NCBI GenBank assembly: GCA_902523535.1
Contig: CABYZQ010000004.1
Coordinates: 39,241 to 103,240 of the forward strand
Length of the DNA: 64,000 nt
Reading direction: 5' to 3'
Origin: an uncultured Pelagibacteraceae bacterium
GTDB taxonomy: Bacteria > Pseudomonadota > Alphaproteobacteria > Pelagibacterales > AG-422-B15
Numbering within the stretch: the first letter of the stretch is position 1; the number at the start of each line of letters is the position of its first letter. The notes below the pieces were generated by a model. That model ran no database searches, was not told the DNA's origin, and was given only the letters and a program-made list of their open reading frames with translations. The position numbers were made by a program, and so were the translations under genes. Of the stretch, positions 1 through 44,836 are shown piece after piece.

Positions 1-593
1 TTGATAGTTTGTTAAATCGATTAGGGCAAGGTGTCGGTTATGACATTTTGAAAAAAGATGAAATTATCAATGAAAAACTAGGTTTGAATGCCAATTCAAG
101 TGGAAATTTGGCTGATCTAATTAATTCTAATAGCAATTCTGGTTCAGGCTCAAGGACAGTTGAAGAAATCGTCAAACGATTTCAGGAGAAAAGTGAAAAC
201 ATCGTCTCTGAAAGTAATGGAAAACAAATTGTAAATCTGATTAAAAATTTTTTAGGTTTAAACGCTTCTCTTGATACTTTTCCGAATATTTTAAGAGAGT
301 TTGTAAGTAATCAAAAGCTTGATTTTTTTAAAAAAGAGATTGATGGCATTGAAGAATTCAAGAACGCCGTCTCATCTGAAATGGATATATCTAAAATTAA
401 TTTTAATAATGACTTTGGACATTCAATTGAATTTTATGATGGTGTTATGTTCGAAATCTATGATCAATCAGGCAATTTAAAGATAATAACTGGTGGAAGA
501 TACGATAAGTTACTTAATATTTTAGGGTCCAGAAACAATCTGTCAGCTATAGGGTTTGCAACAAATAATAATAATTTAAGTAAAATTATATAG
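1..593 (+). CDS. hisZ: ATP phosphoribosyltransferase regulatory subunit HisZ (C-terminal part, 5' end outside window)
   Basis: The ORF is open to the window edge. It has the HisS-like class II core motif ITGGRYDKLL and ends 2 nt before a short-form hisG. Confidence 0.6.
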   Translation, partial: DSLLNRLGQGVGYDILKKDEIINEKLGLNANSSGNLADLINSNSNSGSGSRTVEEIVKRFQEKSENIVSESNGKQIVNLIKNFLGLNASLDTFPNILREFVSNQKLDFFKKEIDGIEEFKNAVSSEMDISKINFNNDFGHSIEFYDGVMFEIYDQSGNLKIITGGRYDKLLNILGSRNNLSAIGFATNNNNLSKII

Positions 594-10125: not shown

Positions 10126-11121
10126 ATGTTTAAGTTTTTTAGAGATCCAAAATGGTTTTACTGGGCATATATTGGTTCAGCAATTATTTTATCGTCATTA
10201 TGGATTCAGGTACAAATTGACGTAAAAATTAATGAATGGTTTGGTGAATTTTATGACATGATACAAGAGGCGTTGTCAGCTCCTAACGTAATTACTATAG
10301 AAGAATATTGGGCAAGTCTTTTATCATTTATAACTTTAGCTGGCATGTATGTGGCTGTAGCAGTTCTTGTAAGTTATTTTACTAATCATTTTCTATTCAG
10401 GTGGAGAACCGCAATGGTAGAATGGTATCATTCTGTTTATGACAAAGCCCGCAAAATTGAAGGGGCCTCACAGAGAGTCCAAGAAGATACAATTAAATTC
10501 TCAAGAATCATGGAGTCTCTTGGAACGAGTTTGATCGAAGCATTAATGATACTGGTTGAATTTATGCCAATTTTATTTGGCCTGAGCATTGGAATTCCAA
10601 TATTTTTCTTTGGTGAATGGGAATATGGTTTAGTTGTTGGGGCGTTGGTGTGGTCAATTGGTGGTACATTATTTTTAATTATTCTTGGTTTTATTTTAAG
10701 ACTTGTTGGAATCGAATATGATCTTCAAAAACAAGAAGCTGCATATAGGAAAATGCTCGTAATTGCTGAGGACGATGAGACTGTGAGGCCAAAAACTCTT
10801 GAGGAATTGTTCGGTGATGTAAGGCAGATACATTTTCTAAGTTATATAAGATACCTATATTTTGATATTGGCCGTGTTGCATTTTTACAGGCAAATGTTT
10901 TATCAGCGTATGTATTTTTAGCACCCGCAATCGTTGCAGGCGTTGTTACCCTTGGGGTTATGCAGCAGATAATCAGGGCATTTGGAAGAGTTGAGGGATC
11001 AATGCAGTATCTGCTAAAAGCATGGCCTACGATAATTGAGCTCGCAAGTGTTTATAAGAGACTAAGAGAGTTTGAAAGACAAATTGATGAAGTTTTAATT
11101 GAAGAGGAAACTCCTGTATAA
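10126..11121 (+). CDS. SbmA/BacA-like inner-membrane transporter
   Basis: Strong by-eye similarity to E. coli SbmA across FRWRTAM...IEGASQRVQEDT and the EAAYRK...GEDD-like segments. At 331 aa it is shorter at the N-terminus than the roughly 400-aa SbmA. Confidence 0.85.
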   Translation: MFKFFRDPKWFYWAYIGSAIILSSLWIQVQIDVKINEWFGEFYDMIQEALSAPNVITIEEYWASLLSFITLAGMYVAVAVLVSYFTNHFLFRWRTAMVEWYHSVYDKARKIEGASQRVQEDTIKFSRIMESLGTSLIEALMILVEFMPILFGLSIGIPIFFFGEWEYGLVVGALVWSIGGTLFLIILGFILRLVGIEYDLQKQEAAYRKMLVIAEDDETVRPKTLEELFGDVRQIHFLSYIRYLYFDIGRVAFLQANVLSAYVFLAPAIVAGVVTLGVMQQIIRAFGRVEGSMQYLLKAWPTIIELASVYKRLREFERQIDEVLIEEETPV

Positions 11122-13444: not shown

Positions 13445-13897
13445 ATGACACAAAATACATTTATGGAACAGGCAATAATAAATGCTTACAAAGGACTAGA
13501 TTTGGGAGAGGTACCAGTCGGTTGTGTGATTGTGAATCAAGATAATAAGATAATCTCCCAATCATATAATAAAGTTATAGCGGATAACGATCCCACTGCT
13601 CATGCTGAGATTAACGCTATAAGGCTAGCATGTGCTTCCTTAAAATCTGAGCGTTTAATCGATTGTAGTGTTTATGTTACTTTAGAGCCTTGTATAATGT
13701 GTGCCGCCGCAATATCGAAATCTAAGTTAAAAAGACTATATTATGGAGCAGATGATATGAATTTTGGTTCTATCAACGGTGGATTTAATTTTTTTCAAAC
13801 AAAAAATTGCAATCATGTGCCAGAGATTTATGATAGTATTTCAAAAATTCAATGTGAGAATTTAATAAACGATTTTTTTAAAGGTAAAAGACCATGA
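13445..13897 (+). CDS. tadA: tRNA-specific adenosine deaminase
   Basis: 150 aa with the CDA zinc motifs HAEINAI and PCIMCAAAI. Confidence 0.9.
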
Positions 13898-15099
13898 CAA
13901 TTTCAGCTAAGGCACAGCAAACAACAGATCGACTAAACACATTTATGGAAAAAAACGTGTATCCAAATAATGATACATATCATAAGCAAATTGAAGACTT
14001 CGGAAATGATCGCTGGCAGGTTGTCCCTATAGTTGAAGATTTAAAAAAAGAAGCAAAAAAAGAGGACCTCTGGAACTTGTTTTTACCAGACAGCGATTTA
14101 GGACATGGACTTTCAAATGCTGAATATGCTCCCATGTGTGAAATAATGGGAAGAGCTATGTGGTCTGCAGAAGTATTTAACTGCTCTGCGCCTGATACAG
14201 GTAATATGGAGGTTCTAGTCAGATACGGAACTGATGAACAGAAAGATAAATATCTTAAACCACTTCTTAATGGCGAAATTCGATCTGCATTTGCAATGAC
14301 AGAACCAGCCGTTGCATCTTCAGATGCAACCAATATTGAAAGTGAGATAAAAAAAGAGGGTAATCAATATGTCTTAAATGGAACAAAATGGTGGACGTCG
14401 GGAGCAATGGATCCAAGATGCCAGTTTTACATTTTTATGGGCAAAACTGATCCTGAGAATGAGAATATTCATAAACAACAGTCCATGATTTTAGTGGATA
14501 AGGATACACCAGGTATTAAAATAAAAAGACACTTACCAGTTTTTGGATTTGACGATGCTCCACACGGGCATGCGGAGGTAGAGTTCAAGGACGTAAAGGT
14601 GCCACCTGAAAATATGTTGTTAGGAGAGGGTAGAGGATTTGAAATCGCTCAAGGCAGACTTGGTCCGGGACGAATTCATCATTGCATGAGAACAATCGGA
14701 CTTGCGGAAGTTGCGCTGGAGGCCATGTGCAAACGATTGATGAGCCGTAAAGCTTTTGGAAAAGAGGTAGTTAGGCATTCTGTGTGGCAAGAAAGAATTG
14801 CAGATGCTCGAATTAATATTGAGATGACAAGACTTTTGACGCTTAAAGCAGCATCAATGATGGATGAGGTAGGTAATAAAGTTGCTAAAAATGAGATAGC
14901 TATGATTAAGGTTGCAGCACCCAATATGGCGCTTAAGATAATAGATGATGCAATCCAAGCCTTTGGAGGCGCAGGAGTCACTACAGATCCAAGATTAGCC
15001 CAAGCTTATGCCGGCATGAGAACGCTACGTTTAGCAGATGGGCCAGATGAAGTTCATAGACTCTCAATCGCTAGAAATGAATTAAAAAAATATCTCTAA
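13894..15099 (+). CDS. Acyl-CoA dehydrogenase family protein, ACAD10/11 (FadE2)-like
   Basis: 401 aa. It has an ACAD fold ([19 protein letters not shown]) and a C-terminal LADGPDEVH in place of the IYEGTxEIQ motif. It overlaps tadA through ATGA. Confidence 0.85.
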
Positions 15100-34459: not shown

Positions 34460-35590
34460 ATGAACTTTGACTTTTCAGATGATCAAAAGCTTTTGCGCGA
34501 TCAAGCTAGAAAGTTTTTACAAGATAAATGCGACCGTAAGTCTGTAAGAAGTATTCTAGAAGATAATCAGAAAAACTATGATGCTGATCTTTGGTCTCAA
34601 ATTTCTGAATTAGGTTGGACTGGTACTGCAATACCTGAAGAATATGGAGGACTTGGTCTAGGTATGTTGGAATTATGTGTAATAGCTGAAGAGCTAGGCA
34701 GAGCTCTTGCGCCTACACCATTTTCTTCTTCGATATATATCTTTGCTGAATTTTTAAAATCGTATGGTACGGATGAACAAAAGAAAAAATATTTACCACA
34801 CATTGCATCAGGTGAAAAAATTGGGACATTTGCTTTATCAGAAACTAATGGTAAACCAAAACCCAACAACATCAGGACACAGCATGCTTCAGGTAAAATA
34901 AATGGATCTAAAAATCCCGTTTCTGATGGAGAGTCAGCAGACTATATCATTGTTGCAGCAAATTCTGATAGTAATTCAAATTATAATTCTCTCTCACTTT
35001 TTATTATTGATAGAAATGATCCAGGCTTAAATATTTCAAACTTAGACACCATCGATCCCACGAGACCATCTTGCGCATTAGATTTGAAAAATGTTGCATG
35101 TGAAAGACTCGGAGACGAAGGAAGTGGCTGGGAGATGATTGATAATATTTTTAATAGAGCAGCTGTTTTATTCTCTTTCGAGCAAGTGGGTGGGGCACAA
35201 GTCTCACTTGATGAAGCAAAAAAATATTCACTTGAGCGATTCGCTTTTGGAAAGCAGATAGGTGCATTTCAAGCTTTAAAGCATAAGATGGCGGACATGT
35301 ATGTCAAAATTGAATTAGCAAGATCTAATGCCTACTATGGTGCCTGGGCACTAAGCACAGATTCAAATGAATTGCCAATTGCCGCTGCTGGTGCAAGGGT
35401 GAGTGCCTCGGAAGCTTACAATTACGCGTCTCAGGAAAATATTCAAATACATGGAGGTGTTGGTTTTACTTGGGAATATGACTGCCACTTGTTTTATCGT
35501 AGATCCAAACTACTTTCTTTAAATATTGGTAGTATTCGTCAGTGGAAAGAAAATTTAATTTCAAATCTTGAAAAAAGGAATATAGTTTAA
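34460..35590 (+). CDS. Acyl-CoA dehydrogenase family protein (pair 1, small-subunit-like)
   Basis: 376 aa with an ACAD fold (QIHGGVGFTWEYD). The position aligned to the MCAD-type catalytic Glu in IYEGT reads LNIGS. Confidence 0.85.
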   Translation: MNFDFSDDQKLLRDQARKFLQDKCDRKSVRSILEDNQKNYDADLWSQISELGWTGTAIPEEYGGLGLGMLELCVIAEELGRALAPTPFSSSIYIFAEFLKSYGTDEQKKKYLPHIASGEKIGTFALSETNGKPKPNNIRTQHASGKINGSKNPVSDGESADYIIVAANSDSNSNYNSLSLFIIDRNDPGLNISNLDTIDPTRPSCALDLKNVACERLGDEGSGWEMIDNIFNRAAVLFSFEQVGGAQVSLDEAKKYSLERFAFGKQIGAFQALKHKMADMYVKIELARSNAYYGAWALSTDSNELPIAAAGARVSASEAYNYASQENIQIHGGVGFTWEYDCHLFYRRSKLLSLNIGSIRQWKENLISNLEKRNIV

Positions 35591-35592
35591 AA

Positions 35593-36876
35593 ATGGATTT
35601 TAACGACACACCTCAAGAAGCTGAATTTAGAAAAAAAGTAAGATCTTTTCTAGAAGCCAATGCAGAAAAAAGATCTACTCTAGCCGCAAAGCCAAAGGGT
35701 GATGCAGGATCTTCTATTTCAAGTGCTGGAGCGCCAGAAACTGTAAAAGGTGAAGATGCTGCAAAGGTAGCGCTAGACAATGCTAAAGAATGGCAAAGAA
35801 AAAAAGCTGATGCTGGATTTGCTGCTATTCTATGGCCAAAGGAATTCGGAGGTTACGGAGGAACACCTATAGAGCAAGTTATATATGCTCAAGAAGAACA
35901 CGACTACTTTGTACACTCAGGATATTTTGAAATTGGAATAGGCATGCTTGGGCCAACCATGATGGCTTGGGGCAAAGATGAAGATAAAAAAAGATTTCTA
36001 CCGAAAATGATTACAGGCGAAGAAATTTGGTGCCAATTATTTTCTGAACCGTCAGCAGGATCAGATTTAGCTGGTATAAGAATGAAGGCAGAAAAAGACG
36101 GTGATGAATGGGTATTAAACGGTCAAAAGGTTTGGACTTCAGGAGCTCATTTTGCCGATTATGGAATGATTGTAGCACGATCTGATCCTACTGCCTTAAA
36201 ACATAAGGGACTTACTTATTTTTATGTTGATATGAAAACACCAGGAATTGAAGCTAAGCCTATTAAGCAAATTTCTGGTTCAGCTAATTTCAATGAAGTT
36301 TTCTTTAATGACGTTCGTATACCTGACAGTCAAAGAATTGGCGCAGAGGGTGACGGGTGGAAAGTGTCACTTACTACTCTAATGAATGAAAGATTAGCGG
36401 TAGGAGATCCTCCAGGCTTGGATTTCGACCAAATTTTTGAAGCCTCTAAAGAAATTGAAGTTGAAGATGGTCTTGCTGTAAAAAATAGTGAAGTAAGACA
36501 AAAGATGGCTGACTGGTACATTCAATCTCGCGGTTTGCAATATACGAAATACAGAAGCATGACCGCTTTATCAAAAGGTCAAACGCCAGGACCAGAGCTC
36601 TCAATAAGTAAACTAGTCACAGCATCAAAAATGCAAGATGTATCGTCTTATGCTCTGGATTTGATGGACATGTCAGGTATGGTTCACCAAGATAAAAATC
36701 CAATTCTTAAAAACTTATTCCAAAACGGCTATTTTTTCTCTGCTGCCATGAGAATTGCTGGTGGTACTGACGAAGTTTTAAGAAATATTATTGCGGAGCG
36801 AGTCCTAGGGCTACCACAAGATGAAAGGTCAGATAAAAAACTGCCTTTCAATGAGTTACCGTCTGGTAAAAACTAA
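35593..36876 (+). CDS. Acyl-CoA dehydrogenase family protein (pair 1, large-subunit-like)
   Basis: 427 aa with FSEPSAGSDLAG and WTSGAHFADY. The C-terminal IAGGTDEVLRNIIAERVLG has Gly where MCAD has Glu. It starts 2 nt after the preceding ACAD. Confidence 0.85.
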   Translation: MDFNDTPQEAEFRKKVRSFLEANAEKRSTLAAKPKGDAGSSISSAGAPETVKGEDAAKVALDNAKEWQRKKADAGFAAILWPKEFGGYGGTPIEQVIYAQEEHDYFVHSGYFEIGIGMLGPTMMAWGKDEDKKRFLPKMITGEEIWCQLFSEPSAGSDLAGIRMKAEKDGDEWVLNGQKVWTSGAHFADYGMIVARSDPTALKHKGLTYFYVDMKTPGIEAKPIKQISGSANFNEVFFNDVRIPDSQRIGAEGDGWKVSLTTLMNERLAVGDPPGLDFDQIFEASKEIEVEDGLAVKNSEVRQKMADWYIQSRGLQYTKYRSMTALSKGQTPGPELSISKLVTASKMQDVSSYALDLMDMSGMVHQDKNPILKNLFQNGYFFSAAMRIAGGTDEVLRNIIAERVLGLPQDERSDKKLPFNELPSGKN

Positions 36877-37738: not shown

Positions 37739-39241
37739 TTTCTGATCATATTCACCAACCTTACCTGTCTGATCGAGAAGTGCATTTATATAATTAAAGA
37801 TTAACTCAACTTCATTATTAGACTCAAAGCTTTCAATAACAATGACCAAAGATGGTTTATTGGAAGAGGCCCTGACCAGTCCCCAGGACCCATTAGAAAG
37901 TTCAAACCGAATACCATTGATTGTCGTTATTTTCTCAATATTTTGATTTCCAACCTTCCCCCCCTTTTCTTCTGTCTCTGTGATTTTTTTTATAATTGAG
38001 TCTACAACTTGATACTTTTCACCATCTTCGCAGAAAGGGGCCATCGTTGGTGACTGAAAAGTCTTTTTAATTTCCAATTTCTTAACTGATAGTTTTTTAG
38101 TTATGTCATTACTTAAATATTGAAGCATTAAACATGCAGATTTTAATCCATCATCAAAACCTAATCCCAATGGCTCGTTAATAAAAAAATGACCACTTTT
38201 TTCAAAACCACACAGCGCGCCAATTTCTTTAACCCTTCTTTTTATATGAGAATGTCCTGTTTTCCACATATCGACTGTGCAATTATTTTTCTTAAGTATT
38301 GAACTTTCAAAATAAAGTCCTGTAGATTTAACATCGATTACAAACTTTGATCCTGGATAACCATCTGACAAAAACTCAGATAGTAATAAACCTATTTTAT
38401 CGGAAAATATTTCTTCCCCTTTATCATCTACTACACCAAGCCTGTCACCATCACCGTCAAAAGCAAAGCCTACATCAGCATTATGCTTAATAACATTTTC
38501 TGATAAATCCTTTAGCATTACTAGGTCTTCAGGGTTTGGATTATAGTGTGGAAATTTAAAATCTAAATCACAGTGTAACTCAATCACTTCACAGTCCAAA
38601 CGTTTCAATAATTCTGGTGCAAAAGCTCCAGCAGTTCCATTACCACATGCAACTACAACTTTAATTCCTTTATTAATTTTTACATCTGAAGCAAGGTATT
38701 CAATGTATTTATCCTTCACCCCAGGAATAAATTGATACTCCCCATTATTTTCCATCGTAACGTTATGATTGTTATCAACAATTTTTTTAATTGATTTCAC
38801 TTCTTCAGGCCCAAAGGTAAGTGATTTTTCAATACCGCATTTAATGCCGGTCCAGCCATTTTCATTATGACTTGCAGTGATCATGGCTAAACTGTCAGTA
38901 TTTAAATGGTGTTGAGCAAAATAAACCATGGGTGACACTGAAAGTCCGACATCCATTACTTTTAAACCTGAGGACAACAAACCTTTTACAACATGATATT
39001 TTACCTCTTCGCTGTATGACCTATAATCATGACCAACAACGATTGATGACCCACTCCCTTTTATATCAGATATATATTGGCCTAAACCGTAACCAAAAAC
39101 CTCAAGGCCTTTTTTATTTATCTGATCTGGATAGAGCCACCTAGCATCATATTCTCTAAATCCATAAGGAGAAATACTTGCAGCTTCAAGTTCTTCATCG
39201 AAGTCAAAACTGATGCTGGATTGCGATTTAAATATTTTCAT
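37727..39241 (-). CDS. Phosphomannomutase/phosphoglucomutase (alpha-D-phosphohexomutase family)
   Basis: 504 aa with the active-site loop TASHNENGWTG and the Mg-binding FDGDGDR motif. Confidence 0.9.
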   Translation of the reverse strand: MKIFKSQSSISFDFDEELEAASISPYGFREYDARWLYPDQINKKGLEVFGYGLGQYISDIKGSGSSIVVGHDYRSYSEEVKYHVVKGLLSSGLKVMDVGLSVSPMVYFAQHHLNTDSLAMITASHNENGWTGIKCGIEKSLTFGPEEVKSIKKIVDNNHNVTMENNGEYQFIPGVKDKYIEYLASDVKINKGIKVVVACGNGTAGAFAPELLKRLDCEVIELHCDLDFKFPHYNPNPEDLVMLKDLSENVIKHNADVGFAFDGDGDRLGVVDDKGEEIFSDKIGLLLSEFLSDGYPGSKFVIDVKSTGLYFESSILKKNNCTVDMWKTGHSHIKRRVKEIGALCGFEKSGHFFINEPLGLGFDDGLKSACLMLQYLSNDITKKLSVKKLEIKKTFQSPTMAPFCEDGEKYQVVDSIIKKITETEEKGGKVGNQNIEKITTINGIRFELSNGSWGLVRASSNKPSLVIVIESFESNNEVELIFNYINALLDQTGKVGEYDQKLTG

Positions 39242-39284
39242 TTTAAGTGTTGCGTATTTTTAAAGAATATAACATATTTATAAC

Positions 39285-39434
39285 GTTGGTTCACGTAAAG
39301 TGAATAACAGGGAATAAGGTTTAAATCCTTAGCTGTACCCGCAACTGTAACTCCAGAGCTTGAATACAGATGCCACTGATTTTATTGGGAAGGCGTATTC
39401 AAATTTTGACGGAGAAGTCAGGAGACCTACCAAC
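39285..39434 (+). promoter_or_regulatory. Cobalamin (B12) riboswitch aptamer
   Basis: All conserved blocks are present in order: AGGGAA (39309-14), GGTttAAATCC, CCCGCAACTGTAA (39338-50), GCCACTG (39372-78), GGGAAGGC (39387-94), and the B12 box AGTCAGGAGACC (39416-27). The closing P1 stem pairs gttggt (39285-90) with accaac (39429-34). Confidence 0.9.
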
Positions 39435-39514
39435 AAAACATAGTCATCCACACGTGATCGGGATAATCATTTGGGCACAATTTGTTTGCGGTGACTTCAA
39501 ACTGGAGGCAAAAC

Positions 39515-41806
39515 ATGACTAAAAGACTAGTATTATCTGCAATTATACTCTTAATAATCAGCTACAACGCAATTGCTGAAGTCCCTGAAATTCTTATTAA
39601 GCCAACTAACGAAGAATATACAAGACTCTCTACCGGTCTTGCAGGCTCAAATATATCAATCATAACGTCTGATCAATTATCTTTAAGGAAGAATGATAAT
39701 ATACAGAAAATTCTTGAGGATTATTCGGGAATAGAGATTCGAAAATATTATGGTGGAATTGAAAATGTAAAGTCAGGTATAGATATGAGAGGTTTCGGAG
39801 AAGCTTCAATATCTAATGTTCTTGTTTTGCTTAATGGTAATCGTCTAAACAACATTGATATGTCCTCAGTTGATTTGTCAAATATACCTTTAGAGTCTAT
39901 CGAAAGAATTGAAATTATAAGAGGTGGATCTGGATCAACATTATATGGCTCTGGTGCTGTAGGAGGAACGATAAATATTGTAACAAAGAACTCCTCGAAA
40001 GAAAGTTCGATTAATTCGTCTTACGGATCATATAATTCATTATCTGGAGAAATATTGATAAGTAGGCCACTTAACGAAAACAACTCCATTTTATTATCTT
40101 CAAAAATGATTGAAACTGATACTTTCAGAAATTCAGCTGATTATAAGAATGAGTCCTATTTGTTAAATCTCTCAAATATACAAGAAGGTTTTAAAATAAA
40201 TCTAGATATCACTACTTCTTCAATTGAACAACAATTGCCAGGGCCAAGAGTAATTGGCGGAGTATACAATTATCACTTTTGCAATCTTTATGGAGACAGT
40301 AAAACAAATAGAAATATCGGAGGATACTCTCATTTTGATCATCCAGAAGGAGCTGAATATGGAAGAACGGCTGAAAGATGCAATACAGCAAAGAGAGTTG
40401 ATTATGCTGACTCAGAAAGTAATTCCTATAACGGTGGGATTTTATACACAATAGATGAGTTAAATAAACTACAATTTAATTTAGGGTACAAAGATAAAAC
40501 AGAAAAATCTTTTTACGGGGCTAATGCCAATACAACCACAACTTCAGCATCCGGCGACAGATACAGCAAAACAGATGTTGATGGCAACTTATTCAATCTT
40601 GCATATGAAAATAAATTCATTGAACAAAGTCACACTAATAGTCTTAAAATTGGATACGATTTTACCCATAGCTTTTACAATTCAAATAGACACCGAAAAG
40701 AAGACGAGGCAGTAGGACATTTTTACGATGCCGATATAAAATCTGAAGGGATATATTTTCAAAATACCGCTTATATCAATGATATATCTACAGCAATATC
40801 TTTTGGAGTGAGATCAGAAGATAACTATTTTAAAGGCAGGGATACTGTTGACCGGAACGTTTCTGGATTCGCAAGTATTTATTCAGCACAAGATCATTCT
40901 ACTTATAATAATAAAACGTCTAATACAGCCTATAATTTAGGAATTGATAATCGTATAAATGAAAATTTGTCCTTTTATGGTCAATACTCTGCTGCGTTTA
41001 GAATTCCAAATATTGATGAAAGAATTCTAACTAAAGATTACGCAAACACAGGTGTAAATGGTGACTTTATTCTTAAAGATCAAGAATCTGATGGTTATGA
41101 AATCGGGCTGAGATATGAAAATATGGGTTTAAGTTTAAACGCAAGTTTCTTTGATATAGAAACAACAAATGAAATCCAGTACAACCAGTCAGTTAATGCT
41201 AATCTAGATCCAATCAAGAGAGAGGGTATAAATCTTGATTTCAATAATAACCTAGACAGTAACACACGTATTAATGGATCATTTAGTTACGTTAATGCTG
41301 AGTTTACATCTGGAGAACTTTCAATGGGTACTAGTAGCTATTTATATGATGGAGTAAGATATTATACTGGAAGTGAAACTTACGGTTATCTTACTGAAAC
41401 GGCACTTAATTTTATGGGCTCTGACGGTACAGAAAATCAGGTTTTTAGTTTAGCGGGAAAAAAGGTTCCATTAGTAGCTCCAATAAAAGTGAACATAGGT
41501 TTAGAAAGAGAATTAATTAATGAATATGAGCTACTCATAGATTTGAGCTATGTTGATGAGAGGTATGTTTCAAACGATCAAGAGAATGTTGAGCCAAAAA
41601 TGCCAGATTATTATTTAGTAGATTTATATGTAAACAATAATAATAATTTTTACGATATATCATTTGGTGTAAATAATTTATTTGATGAGGCTTATTATGA
41701 TTTTGCAATTTCAAGTGTTTTTCATGATGATGCTCATTATGGAACTAGAAATGTGTATCCTTTACCAGGAAGAAATTTCTTTGTGAATTTGGGATATACA
41801 TTCTAA
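39515..41806 (+). CDS. TonB-dependent outer-membrane receptor (BtuB-like by context)
   Basis: I chose the ATG at 39515 because GGAGG lies 6 nt upstream and a signal peptide follows (...YNAIA/EVPE). It has the plug motif IEIIRGGSGSTLYGSGAVGGTINIVTK and a C-terminal aromatic residue (GYTF). It lies directly downstream of the cobalamin riboswitch. Confidence 0.9.
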   Translation: MTKRLVLSAIILLIISYNAIAEVPEILIKPTNEEYTRLSTGLAGSNISIITSDQLSLRKNDNIQKILEDYSGIEIRKYYGGIENVKSGIDMRGFGEASISNVLVLLNGNRLNNIDMSSVDLSNIPLESIERIEIIRGGSGSTLYGSGAVGGTINIVTKNSSKESSINSSYGSYNSLSGEILISRPLNENNSILLSSKMIETDTFRNSADYKNESYLLNLSNIQEGFKINLDITTSSIEQQLPGPRVIGGVYNYHFCNLYGDSKTNRNIGGYSHFDHPEGAEYGRTAERCNTAKRVDYADSESNSYNGGILYTIDELNKLQFNLGYKDKTEKSFYGANANTTTTSASGDRYSKTDVDGNLFNLAYENKFIEQSHTNSLKIGYDFTHSFYNSNRHRKEDEAVGHFYDADIKSEGIYFQNTAYINDISTAISFGVRSEDNYFKGRDTVDRNVSGFASIYSAQDHSTYNNKTSNTAYNLGIDNRINENLSFYGQYSAAFRIPNIDERILTKDYANTGVNGDFILKDQESDGYEIGLRYENMGLSLNASFFDIETTNEIQYNQSVNANLDPIKREGINLDFNNNLDSNTRINGSFSYVNAEFTSGELSMGTSSYLYDGVRYYTGSETYGYLTETALNFMGSDGTENQVFSLAGKKVPLVAPIKVNIGLERELINEYELLIDLSYVDERYVSNDQENVEPKMPDYYLVDLYVNNNNNFYDISFGVNNLFDEAYYDFAISSVFHDDAHYGTRNVYPLPGRNFFVNLGYTF

Positions 41807-41830
41807 GTATAAAACGTTATAAAAAATAGC

Positions 41831-42346
41831 ATGAGTATAAACAAACATTTAGTAGTTGGATTTGTGATCATATTGCTTTTAGCAGCAAGTAGACTGATAC
41901 CGCACCCACCCAACTTCACTCCTATTCTTGGAATGGCCATATTTTCCGGTGCAATAATTAACCATAGATTTATTGCTTATTTAATTCCTCTAACTGCTAT
42001 GCTTTTAAGTGATTTATATTTAGGTTTTCATGCAGGTATGCCTATTGTTTATTTTTCTTTAGCTGTTTGCGTTCTTATAGGAACGTTTATTGAATCGAGA
42101 GTATCAATTATCAACTCTCTATTAAGTATCAGTCTAGGAGTATTGGTATTTTTCTTGATCACAAACTTTACTGTTTGGTATGGATCTGGAATGTACGAAT
42201 ATAGTATTTCAGGCCTTATGACTTGTTACTTTATGGGACTGCCTTTTGTACAAAACACATTTATTTCAAGTATTTTGTATGGAATGGGAGCTTTTTTAAT
42301 CTACGATATCATCAATAAACGTATGATTTTTGGCAATAATGCTTAA
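41831..42346 (+). CDS. Small six-helix membrane protein, candidate vitamin transporter (DUF6580/BtuM-like by my recollection)
   Basis: 171 aa with about 6 hydrophobic segments and the motif RLIPHPPNFTPI. It starts 24 nt after the receptor stop on the same strand. Confidence 0.55.
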   Translation: MSINKHLVVGFVIILLLAASRLIPHPPNFTPILGMAIFSGAIINHRFIAYLIPLTAMLLSDLYLGFHAGMPIVYFSLAVCVLIGTFIESRVSIINSLLSISLGVLVFFLITNFTVWYGSGMYEYSISGLMTCYFMGLPFVQNTFISSILYGMGAFLIYDIINKRMIFGNNA

Positions 42347-42413
42347 AAAATAGAGTTGAAATCAGTATTTTAAGGCATTATATATTTTTTAAATTTAAAT
42401 ATTAGGTGATTCC

Positions 42414-43616
42414 ATGGATACAGCATTTTCAAGTGAAGATTTAAAATTTCAATCAGACGTAAGAGAATTTATTTCAAACAACTACCCAAAAGAACTGAAA
42501 GACTCAATCGGTACAAAAAGAAAAACTGGAAAAGAGTTGTCCCGCGATGACTTAATGTCGTGGCATAAAATCTTAGGTAAACACAATGGCTGGTCAGCAC
42601 CTGGATGGCCTAAAGAGTATGGTGGAGCAGAATTTTCTCCAACGCAAAAATATATATTTGAGCAAGAGTGTGCTCGAGCTGAATGTCAATACATAATGCC
42701 TTTCGGTGTTAATATGGTTGGTCCAGTTATTTATACATTTGGCAATGACGAACAAAAAGCAAAACATCTTCCAGGTATTTTAAGTGGAGATATATTTTGG
42801 TGCCAGGGATATTCAGAGCCGGGGTCAGGTTCTGATTTAGCATCTCTTAAAACAAGTGCAGTCAAAGAAGGTGACCATTATGTTGTTAATGGTCAAAAAA
42901 CTTGGACTACTCTTGCACAGCACGCAGATTGGATTTTCTGCTTAGTTAGAACAAACCCAGATGCAGAAAAACCTCAACAAGGAATCTCATTTCTCTTGAT
43001 TGATATGAAAACTCCAGGCATTACTGTTCGCCCAATCAAGCTTATGGATGGATCTCACGAAGTTAACGAAACCTGGTTTGATAATGTAAAGGTACCAGTT
43101 GAGAATCTAATTGGACAAGAAAATATGGGCTGGACTTACGCGAAATTTTTATTAGCACATGAAAGATCAGGCATTGCGGGTGTAGCGAGGTCTAAAAAAG
43201 CTTTAGAAAGAATAAAGCAAATTGCTAGTGCCGAGATGTCTTATGGTGAACCGTTAATACAGGATCCTGCATTTAAATCCAAAATAGCAAATGCTGAACT
43301 TGAGTTAAGTTCTTTAGAATATACTGAACTCAGAACTTTAGCGAAAGACTCAGCAGGTAAAGGTCCAGGCCCAGAGTCATCACTTCTGAAAATTAAGGGA
43401 ACTGATATTCAACAAATGGTTACTGAACTTGCGATGGAAGCGGTTGGGTATTATGCTAACCCTCATTTGGGCACTACATTGAGTAATGAATATGTAGGAC
43501 CAGATTACGCAACCAACTTATCAGGGTCATACTTTAATTTCAGAAAAGCATCTATTTATGGTGGCTCTAATGAAATTCAGAGAAATATTATCGCTAAGAT
43601 GGTTCTTGGATTATAA
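42414..43616 (+). CDS. Acyl-CoA dehydrogenase family protein (pair 2, large-subunit-like)
   Basis: 400 aa with YSEPGSGSDLASL and WTTLAQHADW. The C-terminal IYGGSNEIQRNIIAK has Gly at the MCAD Glu position. Confidence 0.85.
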   Translation: MDTAFSSEDLKFQSDVREFISNNYPKELKDSIGTKRKTGKELSRDDLMSWHKILGKHNGWSAPGWPKEYGGAEFSPTQKYIFEQECARAECQYIMPFGVNMVGPVIYTFGNDEQKAKHLPGILSGDIFWCQGYSEPGSGSDLASLKTSAVKEGDHYVVNGQKTWTTLAQHADWIFCLVRTNPDAEKPQQGISFLLIDMKTPGITVRPIKLMDGSHEVNETWFDNVKVPVENLIGQENMGWTYAKFLLAHERSGIAGVARSKKALERIKQIASAEMSYGEPLIQDPAFKSKIANAELELSSLEYTELRTLAKDSAGKGPGPESSLLKIKGTDIQQMVTELAMEAVGYYANPHLGTTLSNEYVGPDYATNLSGSYFNFRKASIYGGSNEIQRNIIAKMVLGL

Positions 43617-43657
43617 AATTTTTGACATTTTAGCTAGCAGTATATAGGACTACCCCC

Positions 43658-44836
43658 ATGAATTTTGATTATACAGAAGAACAAACACTTCTTGAAAACA
43701 TGGTCACCTCGTTTGTAAGGGATGACTATGACTGGGATACAAGATGCTCAATTGTGAAAACTGAGGAGGGATGGAAAGAAGAAAACTGGAAGAAGTTTGC
43801 TGAACTTGGCCTTTTAGGAGTTCCTTTTGAGGAGGATCATGGTGGTTTAGGTGGTGAAGCTACTGACATAATGATTGTAATGGAGCAGTTTGGAAAAGGC
43901 CTTGTTGTAGAGCCTTACATGCCATCAATAATTCTTGCTGGAGGTCTCATCTCTAAACTTGGATCAGCTGATCAAAAAAATTCAATTATCCCCGAAATTA
44001 TATCAGGTGACAGACGTTATGTTTTTGCATACGCAGAGCCTCAGAGTAGGTTTGATTTATTTGATGTTAAATGTTCAGCGACTCTTGACGGAGATAATTA
44101 TATTATTAATGGATTTAAGTCAGTAGTCTTTGGAGCTGGAATGGCAACTCACTTAATTGTTTCAGCGAGAACTGATGGAGATCAAAGATCAAAATCAGGA
44201 ATTACACTATTCTTGGTTGATATAAAATCTGATGGTATCACTTTACAGAATTATCCAACAATAGATGAGTACAGAGCATCTGAGGTTGTTATCGAAAATT
44301 TAACTGTGTCGAAAGAAAATATTTTAGGTGAGCTGGGTAATTCTTATGAAGCAATTGAAGAACAAGTAGATTTATCTACAATTGCAATATGCTCAGAAGC
44401 TGTTGGCATTTTACAAGTGCTAAAAGACTCTACGAATGATTATTGTAAAAATAGAAAACAATTTGGGCAATCCATCAGTGCAAATCAAGCTATACAGCAC
44501 CGCCTTGTTGACATGATGATTGAATATGAGCAAGCAAAATCTATTCTTTATATGGCTATTACTGCAGACCTAAGTAATACAGATGAAAGAAGAAAGGCCG
44601 CATCGGCTGCAAAAGCTCGTATTGGAAAAGCTATTAAATTTGTTGGTGAAAATGCTATTCAATTACACGGTGGCATGGGTGTTGTTGACGAGTATATGAT
44701 CAGTCACTTTTTTAAAAGAGCAACAATGATCGGTATTCTTTTCGGCAATGTTGATTTTCACATGAAAAGATACACTGATTTGACCCAATCTAATATTCAG
44801 TCAATAAATGAAGACGACGGAATTAATCTTTCTTAG
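43658..44836 (+). CDS. Acyl-CoA dehydrogenase family protein (pair 2, small-subunit-like)
   Basis: 392 aa with an ACAD fold (QLHGGMGVVDEY). The C-terminal motif is degenerate (ILFGNVDFH instead of IYEGTxEIQ). Confidence 0.85.
   Translation: MNFDYTEEQTLLENMVTSFVRDDYDWDTRCSIVKTEEGWKEENWKKFAELGLLGVPFEEDHGGLGGEATDIMIVMEQFGKGLVVEPYMPSIILAGGLISKLGSADQKNSIIPEIISGDRRYVFAYAEPQSRFDLFDVKCSATLDGDNYIINGFKSVVFGAGMATHLIVSARTDGDQRSKSGITLFLVDIKSDGITLQNYPTIDEYRASEVVIENLTVSKENILGELGNSYEAIEEQVDLSTIAICSEAVGILQVLKDSTNDYCKNRKQFGQSISANQAIQHRLVDMMIEYEQAKSILYMAITADLSNTDERRKAASAAKARIGKAIKFVGENAIQLHGGMGVVDEYMISHFFKRATMIGILFGNVDFHMKRYTDLTQSNIQSINEDDGINLS

Follow-up and report, generated by a model that had tools for sequence, protein, structure and literature searches.

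A cobalamin riboswitch, a TonB-dependent receptor and a DUF6580 membrane protein form a candidate corrinoid uptake module in a Pelagibacteraceae genome

In Escherichia coli, vitamin B12 (cobalamin) is taken up by the BtuB-BtuFCD system in two transport steps across two membranes, the first of which uses a TonB-dependent outer-membrane receptor gated by a cobalamin riboswitch and the second a binding protein, a permease pair and an ATPase. For most prokaryotes, the membrane proteins of B12 uptake are still unidentified, and a smaller solution has been put forward with BtuM, which is found mostly in alpha-, beta- and gammaproteobacteria (131 hits) and has been proposed to need neither BtuCDF nor an energy-coupling factor (ECF) module for the import of B12 (Rempel et al. 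2018, PMC6072759). Here we report on a stretch of 64,000 nucleotides (nt) from an uncultured Pelagibacteraceae bacterium (GenBank assembly GCA_902523535.1, contig CABYZQ010000004.1, positions 39,241 to 103,240), hereafter the window, in which a cobalamin riboswitch is followed by the genes of a TonB-dependent receptor and of a small membrane protein of the Pfam family DUF6580 (PF20221). Gene context and predicted fold make it probable, in our judgement, that these elements constitute a B12-repressed two-gene corrinoid uptake operon in which DUF6580 replaces BtuCDF.

The module resembles the E. coli system in having a riboswitch-gated receptor and two membranes to be crossed, and differs from it, at the level of the locus, by an inner-membrane step without binding protein, permease pair or ATPase, as well as by the length of the receptor (763 amino acids, aa, against about 614 for BtuB). 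BtuM of Thiobacillus denitrificans comes closer: like DUF6580, it is a small (about 20 kDa) inner-membrane protein of six helices, encoded in Gram-negative bacteria beside an outer-membrane B12 receptor; it belongs to the S-component fold class, which is likely for DUF6580 as well, and DUF6580 would fill the same role, that is, B12 import in the absence of BtuCDF or of an ECF module. ECF-CbrT of Lactobacillus delbrueckii, as described by Santos et al. (2018), likewise has an S-component as its B12-binding membrane subunit and, unlike what is seen at the DUF6580 loci, works with a co-encoded EcfAA'T module. The solitary form of BioY, which handles another substrate (biotin) and belongs to another family, is described as a lone S-component acting as a low-capacity, high-affinity vitamin transporter, and offers a precedent. 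While a riboswitch-gated receptor with a solitary S-component-like importer is a kind of system already known from BtuM, DUF6580 differs from BtuM as a family, in the residues that it conserves and in the taxa that it reaches (about 5,000 clusters; the homologues retrieved here are mostly Bacteroidota-type), and is undescribed in the literature that we found; our searches brought up no paper naming DUF6580, and the matches to "PF20221" were unrelated catalogue numbers.

The riboswitch matches the covariance model RF00174 over all of its 189 positions (1-189) with E = 2.3e-26 and 108.9 bits, where the gathering threshold is 31.5, and is the sole Rfam match in the window. A preliminary description of this DNA, made from its letters alone, had claimed a complete cobalamin riboswitch, and rightly so; since the outermost P1 pairs of the element are non-canonical, the start that it gave, 39285, reasonably approximates where the functional element has its 5' end. 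The receptor begins at an ATG at 39515, 66 nt past the aptamer and just downstream of a GGAGG motif, while the list of open reading frames (ORFs) starts it at a TTG at 39482; the identical protein is also 763 aa long in metagenome gene calls, so that the receptor identity given earlier holds and the length of 764 aa is off by a trivial difference. Plug (PF07715, E = 2.9e-20) and TonB-dependent barrel (PF00593, E = 7.7e-28) domains place it in the TonB-dependent receptor superfamily, and a signal peptide (MTKRLVLSAIILLIISYNAIA) as well as a TonB-box-like EILIKPT were read by eye. The small six-helix protein was also correctly described, with its RLIPHPPNFTPI at residues 21-32 and its Cys at residue 80. 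Its residues 3-164 align to positions 3-158 of the 162-position PF20221 profile with E = 7e-44 and 150.3 bits against a threshold of 27, which settles in favour of DUF6580, by search with the Pfam hidden Markov model, the earlier wording "BtuM-like or DUF6580-type"; the BtuM-like half, which stands neither as family nor as mechanism, is taken up below. All listed homologues carry PF20221, and NCBIfam has no model for DUF6580 and gives with the small protein merely a spurious sub-threshold match to TatA. The view of the module as one riboswitch-gated unit of receptor and small membrane protein is thus upheld, and the coordinates of its parts are collected in Table 1.

A consensus pattern scan of 39000-42700 returned no intrinsic-terminator-like site, so the receptor and DUF6580 genes are most simply read as one transcript, and we presume that they are co-transcribed. 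On the same ground, a transcription terminator was rejected as the output of the switch, which is likely to be control of translation initiation. In the minimum-energy fold, the GGAGG sits in the 3' arm of a hairpin, with a z-score of just -1.6 that is not statistically distinctive. As for composition, the module has a G+C content of 30-35% against 36-39% in its flanks and 33.9% in the window overall, a gap too small to argue for recent transfer, and a foreign origin on this basis was rejected.

Table 1. Coordinates of the module in the window, of related genes in distant loci, and residues conserved in DUF6580.
Feature	Position	Strand	Basis or remark
Cobalamin riboswitch aptamer (RF00174), full length with P6 extension region	39270..39448	+	Rfam covariance model
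Expression platform/leader with ribosome-binding site GGAGG (39504-39508)	39449..39514	+	Translational control inferred
TonB-dependent outer-membrane receptor, 763 aa	39515..41806	+	Plug and barrel domains
Receptor-to-DUF6580 spacer, 24 nt	41807..41830	+	Co-transcription presumed
DUF6580 protein, 171 aa, six transmembrane helices	41831..42346	+	PF20221
PF01902 (Diphthami_syn_2, ATP-pyrophosphatase-type) gene after receptor	L060 6504-7202	-	
PF01902 (Diphthami_syn_2, ATP-pyrophosphatase-type) gene after receptor	L067 6564-7256	-	
Small DUF4430 proteins, 128-143 aa, in NrdJ operons	L062 3948-4361, L069 5591-6001, L066 5136-5567, L034 5630-6016		
DUF6580 conserved residue	R21		147/148 representatives
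DUF6580 conserved residue	H25		135/148 representatives
DUF6580 conserved residue	N28		146/148 representatives
DUF6580 conserved residue	D61		147/148 representatives
DUF6580 conserved residue	Y74		148/148 representatives
DUF6580 conserved residue	N112		145/148 representatives
DUF6580 conserved residue	W116		142/148 representatives
DUF6580 conserved residue	Y122		140/148 representatives
DUF6580 conserved residue	G128		147/148 representatives

Conservation of the module among close relatives is strict. Relatives of the small protein were found at 69 loci in species-representative genomes, the closest 26 of which are labelled as Pelagibacteraceae bacterium single-cell genomes, and among the names that receptor homologues bear at NCBI is "TonB-dependent receptor [Pelagibacteraceae bacterium]"; the window belongs to a SAR11-type lineage, in line with the Pelagibacterales-type host that had been suspected. 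Over 12.5 kb, several of these loci are 88-94% identical to the window in nucleotide sequence, and a second group, including AG-422-B15, is about 73% identical. AG-894-A11 and AG-333-L20 are further examples of single-cell genomes with the module. The receptor gene lies directly upstream of the DUF6580 gene in every Pelagibacteraceae locus, and the order riboswitch, receptor, DUF6580 is present in all 13 that were scanned (riboswitch 103-114 bits, DUF6580 identity 56-89%). Furthermore, the aptamer columns are mostly invariant across 10 relatives, and the leader is conserved to the start codon in relatives with the same receptor type.

The association with B12 extends well beyond this family. 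Scanning with Rfam and annotating the neighbours of 50 distant loci of about 12 kb, with a DUF6580 protein at about 33-48% identity, gave a B12 link in 12 of them and RF00174 in 7, the chance rate being by our own estimate about 1% per locus if genomes have a few riboswitches each; the association between DUF6580 homologues and cobalamin riboswitches, which the preliminary description had proposed to check, is present on both scales. Five distant loci (L027, an Ignavibacteriaceae metagenome-assembled genome, MAG, and L078, L080, L081 and L083) have riboswitch, receptor and DUF6580 on one strand with DUF6580 proteins just 36-48% identical to that of the window; these loci look like Bacteroidota/Ignavibacteriota, and no BtuCDF-type genes lie within about 5 kb. 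In two of them, three proteins are encoded between receptor and DUF6580 (L080 3121-4903, L081 3085-4868), namely a DUF5074 protein of about 440 aa with a sorting tail of the type IX secretion system (T9SS), a protein of 61-69 aa and an 80-aa Cys_rich_CWC protein, which may be surface corrinoid-capture accessories. In the Sphingobacteriales loci L060 and L067 (Daejeonella), an operon of riboswitch, receptor and PF01902 gene converges on the DUF6580 gene. A fusion of DUF6580 and PF01902 was also seen, in one protein of 685 aa (P0384), and this link may point to a B12-related enzymatic step tied to DUF6580.

A second B12 context was found in four genomes, where DUF6580 shares its operon with a small DUF4430 protein and a ribonucleotide reductase of class II, the B12-dependent type (NrdJ): Saccharibacteria L062 and L066 and Nomurabacteria L069, all three of the candidate phyla radiation (CPR), and a Gammaproteobacteria-labelled MAG (L034). 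An adenosyltransferase is present in each, of the PduO type and preceding DUF4430 in L034 and L066, of the BtuR/CobA type and following DUF6580 in L062 and L069, and a thioredoxin is encoded in or beside the operons of L062, L069 and L034, downstream of DUF6580 in the first two. These operons hold neither an outer-membrane receptor nor another transporter, and DUF6580 is their only integral membrane protein; with B12 user, reductant, binder and adenosyltransferase all accounted for, DUF6580 is the only candidate for crossing the membrane. The pairing of DUF6580 with two non-homologous adenosyltransferases in otherwise equivalent operons makes, from gene content, a classic argument for a missing transporter. 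CPR bacteria have no outer membrane, and the DUF4430 protein of L062 has an N-terminal membrane anchor as read by eye. In B12 binders of the transcobalamin type, DUF4430 forms the C-terminal domain (PMC4350170), and the small proteins of these operons would be minimal membrane-tethered relatives of the beta-domain with which transcobalamin and intrinsic factor bind B12.

The third context is that of methionine synthase. In the Cytophagales MAG L059 (4193-9122), a SAM-I/IV riboswitch (47.3 bits) precedes metK, a QueF-like gene and the DUF6580 gene, which lies directly upstream of a metH split in two: first comes a part of 333 aa that binds homocysteine, then a part that binds pterin and B12 and has the motif DVHDIGKN (DxHxxG). 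This operon would put B12 uptake under the control of S-adenosylmethionine (SAM). Transport of a queuosine precursor, which the QueF-like neighbour might bring to mind, was rejected, this being a single case in an operon that also holds the B12-dependent MetH. Taken over several lineages, such independent B12 gene neighbourhoods support a role of DUF6580 as inner-membrane corrinoid transporter, in line with the inner-membrane partner that had been proposed.

When 1.84 billion cluster representatives (clusters at 50% identity) were searched with a profile, there were 6,741 DUF6580 clusters at E<=1e-3, while at E<=1e-10 the number was 5,076. Among the 150 matches listed, nearly all are single-domain proteins of 170-220 aa, and the homologues retrieved are mostly Bacteroidota-type, with Pelagibacterales and CPR in addition. 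Nine positions are conserved in 135 to 148 of 148 representatives (Table 1), and the conservation of R21, H25, N28, D61, Y74, N112 and G128 argues for one common ligand throughout the family. The AlphaFold2 model, built on an alignment of 78 diverse sequences, has a mean predicted local distance difference test (pLDDT) of 86.2 and a predicted template modelling score (pTM) of 0.82; DSSP assigns seven helical segments, and those at 126-135 and 137-162 were read as one kinked sixth transmembrane helix. Comparison of the model with the PDB by Foldseek gave ECF S-components as the top seven matches (FolT, ThiT, YkoE and PanT; probability 0.82-0.96, TM-score 0.45-0.54, E-values 0.1-1), and an ECF S-component fold is the likely one for DUF6580. 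Our reading of the positive-inside rule (K5, R46, R89, K163/R164) would put both termini in the cytoplasm, and with this topology the conserved polar residues would lie in or near outward-facing loops or in the outer halves of helices.

We infer a mechanism in which the substrate, the direction of transport, the coupling to energy, the ligand-contacting residues (including a role for His25) and the translational mode of control would combine as follows. When intracellular cobalamin is low, the ribosome-binding site would be accessible and both genes expressed; the receptor, powered by a TonB system encoded elsewhere, would capture corrinoid at the surface and deliver it to the periplasm. DUF6580 would then bind it in an outward-facing pocket, with R21, H25 and N28 (loop 1), D61 (outer end of helix 3), Y74, N112, W116 and Y122 toward the periplasmic face, and, standing in for BtuCDF, bring it across the inner membrane. 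For this, it would probably need no dedicated ATPase and act as a solitary S-component, by a toppling or elevator movement, and binding or adenosylation of the cofactor inside the cell may pull uptake forward and make it effectively one-way. Once cobalamin suffices, the aptamer would be bound and translation of the operon switched off.

We further lean, with some reserve, towards a more general view of DUF6580 as a large family (about 5,000 clusters) of corrinoid importers that would be solitary, ATPase-independent and S-component-like. They would bind B12 through the loop-1 motif R-x-x-P-H-x-x-N, possibly by His25, instead of a cysteine as in BtuM, and represent the missing transporter of SAR11-type Pelagibacterales, of many Bacteroidota/Ignavibacteriota and of CPR bacteria, where DUF6580 would be teamed with membrane-anchored DUF4430; abundant SAR11 lineages would actively scavenge B12 under riboswitch control.

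Several observations weigh against a corrinoid uptake operon. The receptor falls far below the cut-offs of the BtuB equivalog models (TIGR01779, 81.5 against 599.7; NF007926, 68.4 against 836; in both cases over the plug region only), and its best sub-threshold NCBIfam matches are haem/haemoglobin receptor subfamilies. The Foldseek E-values are weak and the TM-scores around 0.5, and the structures of BtuM and CbrT are absent among the 50 matches listed. No B12-related neighbour was present in 38 of the 50 distant loci, mostly Bacteroidota, which weakens the inference; since genes for vitamin transporters often stand alone, it is no contradiction of it. Finally, neither TonB/ExbBD nor a B12-dependent enzyme nor an adenosyltransferase was seen in the 64-kb window (Pfam scans of the ORFs at about 9-52 kb, the remaining translations being read by eye), so that the organism's need for B12 is implied by the riboswitch only. 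The same scans and reading gave no btuCDF and no periplasmic binding protein; all these absences, the adenosyltransferase apart, had been listed in the preliminary description.

With respect to the receptor, two more distant homologues (25-26% identity) had their surroundings read, and both lie behind RF00174. In one of these loci (L074), the receptor is followed by TonB_C and a PduO adenosyltransferase, with BtuF-like, FecCD/ABC and CobD genes nearby and no DUF6580 in the locus. Uptake of a corrinoid by the receptor of the window is well supported by this context, that is, by its riboswitch and by the B12 surroundings of two distant relatives, and DUF6580 and BtuFCD look like alternatives at the level of the locus.

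Among the other explanations, that which survives best, although we hold it to be unlikely, makes of DUF6580 a B12 S-component in need of an ECF module (EcfT and two ATPases) or of another energising partner encoded elsewhere, so that the two-gene unit would be incomplete. FolT, ThiT and PanT, the structures closest to it, all depend on a module, and CPR bacteria might carry ECF modules. However, no EcfT or EcfA gene is found near DUF6580 in the approximately 80 loci examined, nor in the window. S-components that act alone have precedents in BtuM and in some BioY proteins, and cultured SAR11 strains are not known to encode ECF modules.

A quite improbable alternative is that DUF6580 acts on a related molecule or step: it might import cobinamide, cobalt or a lower-ligand precursor such as alpha-ribazole, serve as a membrane accessory (anchor or receiver for a surface binder), or process corrinoids as an enzyme. 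Cobalamin riboswitches also control cobalt and precursor transporters, and a chemical step linked to the protein is hinted at by the DUF6580-PF01902 fusion and by the PF01902 gene behind the receptor in two riboswitch operons. On the other hand, the CPR operons contain no genes for corrin or lower-ligand assembly, which fits the uptake of a finished corrinoid; cobalt or small bases need no TonB-dependent receptor, and the predicted fold is that of a transporter.

That DUF6580 would be a divergent BtuM, with Cys80 as axial cobalt ligand and with decyanation activity, we consider very improbable. Both proteins are small and encoded beside a B12 receptor, BtuM has an S-component fold and DUF6580 a likely one, and a genomic tie to the receptor gene and to B12 regulation, as is typical of BtuM, is found as the order riboswitch, receptor, DUF6580 in the 13 Pelagibacteraceae loci and in five distant ones. 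A Cys occupies column 80 in the window protein, in the Pelagibacteraceae sequences and in the CPR proteins of L062 and L069. However, the cobalt-ligating cysteine of BtuM, Cys80 in the crystallised protein, is invariant, essential and located in loop L3 (Rempel et al. 2018, PMC6072759), whereas Cys80 of the window protein lies in the middle of a predicted helix (70-87) and its column is mostly Ile (68 of the 148 representatives), Val (24), Thr (24) or Ser (12). It is Ile in the Ignavibacteriaceae protein of L027, which has the same riboswitch context. The residue number 80 common to both proteins is a coincidence, and the earlier proposal of a conserved cobalt ligand at this position fails. 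No PDB chain was retrieved at E<=10, by phmmer with the protein or by hmmsearch with a 23-sequence profile, crystallised BtuM of T. denitrificans being presumably among the chains searched. In the absence of any such match and of an invariant loop cysteine, membership of DUF6580 in BtuM was dropped, and, without the loop-3 cysteine, cysteine-mediated decyanation is not expected; unlike BtuM, the family has R21, H25, N28, D61, Y74, N112, W116 and Y122 as its conserved set. What survives of the analogy would be functional, a solitary S-component-like B12 importer beside a receptor.

The last alternative, a meaningless adjacency in which DUF6580 is a housekeeping membrane protein of unrelated function, may recall that most Bacteroidota DUF6580 genes have unrelated, lineage-restricted neighbours, and is hardly credible given that three B12 contexts (riboswitch with receptor; NrdJ with adenosyltransferase and DUF4430; MetH) recur across Pelagibacterales, Ignavibacteriota-like and other lineages of the Fibrobacteres-Chlorobi-Bacteroidetes (FCB) type, Sphingobacteriales, Cytophagales, CPR and a gammaproteobacterial MAG. 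The Bacteroidota neighbours include MutL/rhomboid, T9SS cargo, ATP-grasp and aminotransferase genes, with synteny that is lineage-specific only, and clustering of the neighbours revealed no functional theme besides B12 that recurs across lineages.

If corrinoid import by DUF6580 is true, a role would be given to thousands of genes now called hypothetical, and B12 consumers in oceans, guts and soils would be better predicted. Cultured Pelagibacter strains were reported to be without TonB-dependent transporters (PMC3400609), and a field study of 2022 stated that the regulation of SAR11 btuB by B12 was unknown (PMC9296465); our literature search on SAR11/Pelagibacter and B12 receptors found nothing specific. 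The riboswitch present in 13 of 13 loci answers this question at the sequence level for these lineages, and its conservation implies that they use, and compete for, B12. In CPR bacteria, the operon of NrdJ, adenosyltransferase, DUF4430 and DUF6580 would be a self-contained B12 salvage route for the synthesis of DNA precursors.

The receptor itself is a hot spot of divergence. In comparison with L001-L023 and L042, the variation resides in the barrel part (window 39990-41540): while the flanking genes are 88-94% identical in DNA, the receptor proteins are only 36-68% identical, with at least two classes of alleles, one at about 37% and one at 45-68% identity. Receptor similarity is independent of relatedness, the 73%-identity group (L012, L016) being as close to the receptor of the window as the 93%-identity group. 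This pattern suggests diversifying selection, for example by phages or toxins that use the receptor, together with allele exchange.

A minor observation concerns L043, an Acidihalobacter MAG, where a TwoAYGGAY RNA motif (RF01731; 51.7 bits, gathering threshold 43) occupies 227-374 (+), is followed after about 390 nt by the DUF6580 gene (765-1406), and overlaps a crudely called ORF without Pfam match. In the window, a 331-aa SbmA/BacA-like membrane protein (PF05992, E = 1e-139) is encoded at 10126-11121 (+), with no riboswitch and no B12 neighbours there; BacA of mycobacteria, a transporter of the ATP-binding cassette (ABC) type, is reported to import cobalamin (PMC10960864). The other genes, of housekeeping and fatty-acid oxidation, include, as identified by eye, HisZ/HisG, GroEL/ES, IleS, NadE, GltX, CysS, a LeuA-like protein, RpsD and PurL/Q, and furthermore LpxK, KdtA, an MsbA-like exporter, PmbA, UbiA, RpoZ, TauE, phosphomannomutase, GlmU, GlmS and 3-deoxy-D-arabino-heptulosonate 7-phosphate (DAHP) synthase. 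Five acyl-CoA dehydrogenase genes, two of them on each side of the B12 module, occur with an enoyl-CoA hydratase and short-chain dehydrogenases (13894-15099, assigned by eye, 34460-36876 and 42414-44836), a content in fatty-acid or branched-chain oxidation genes that is unusually dense for 64 kb.

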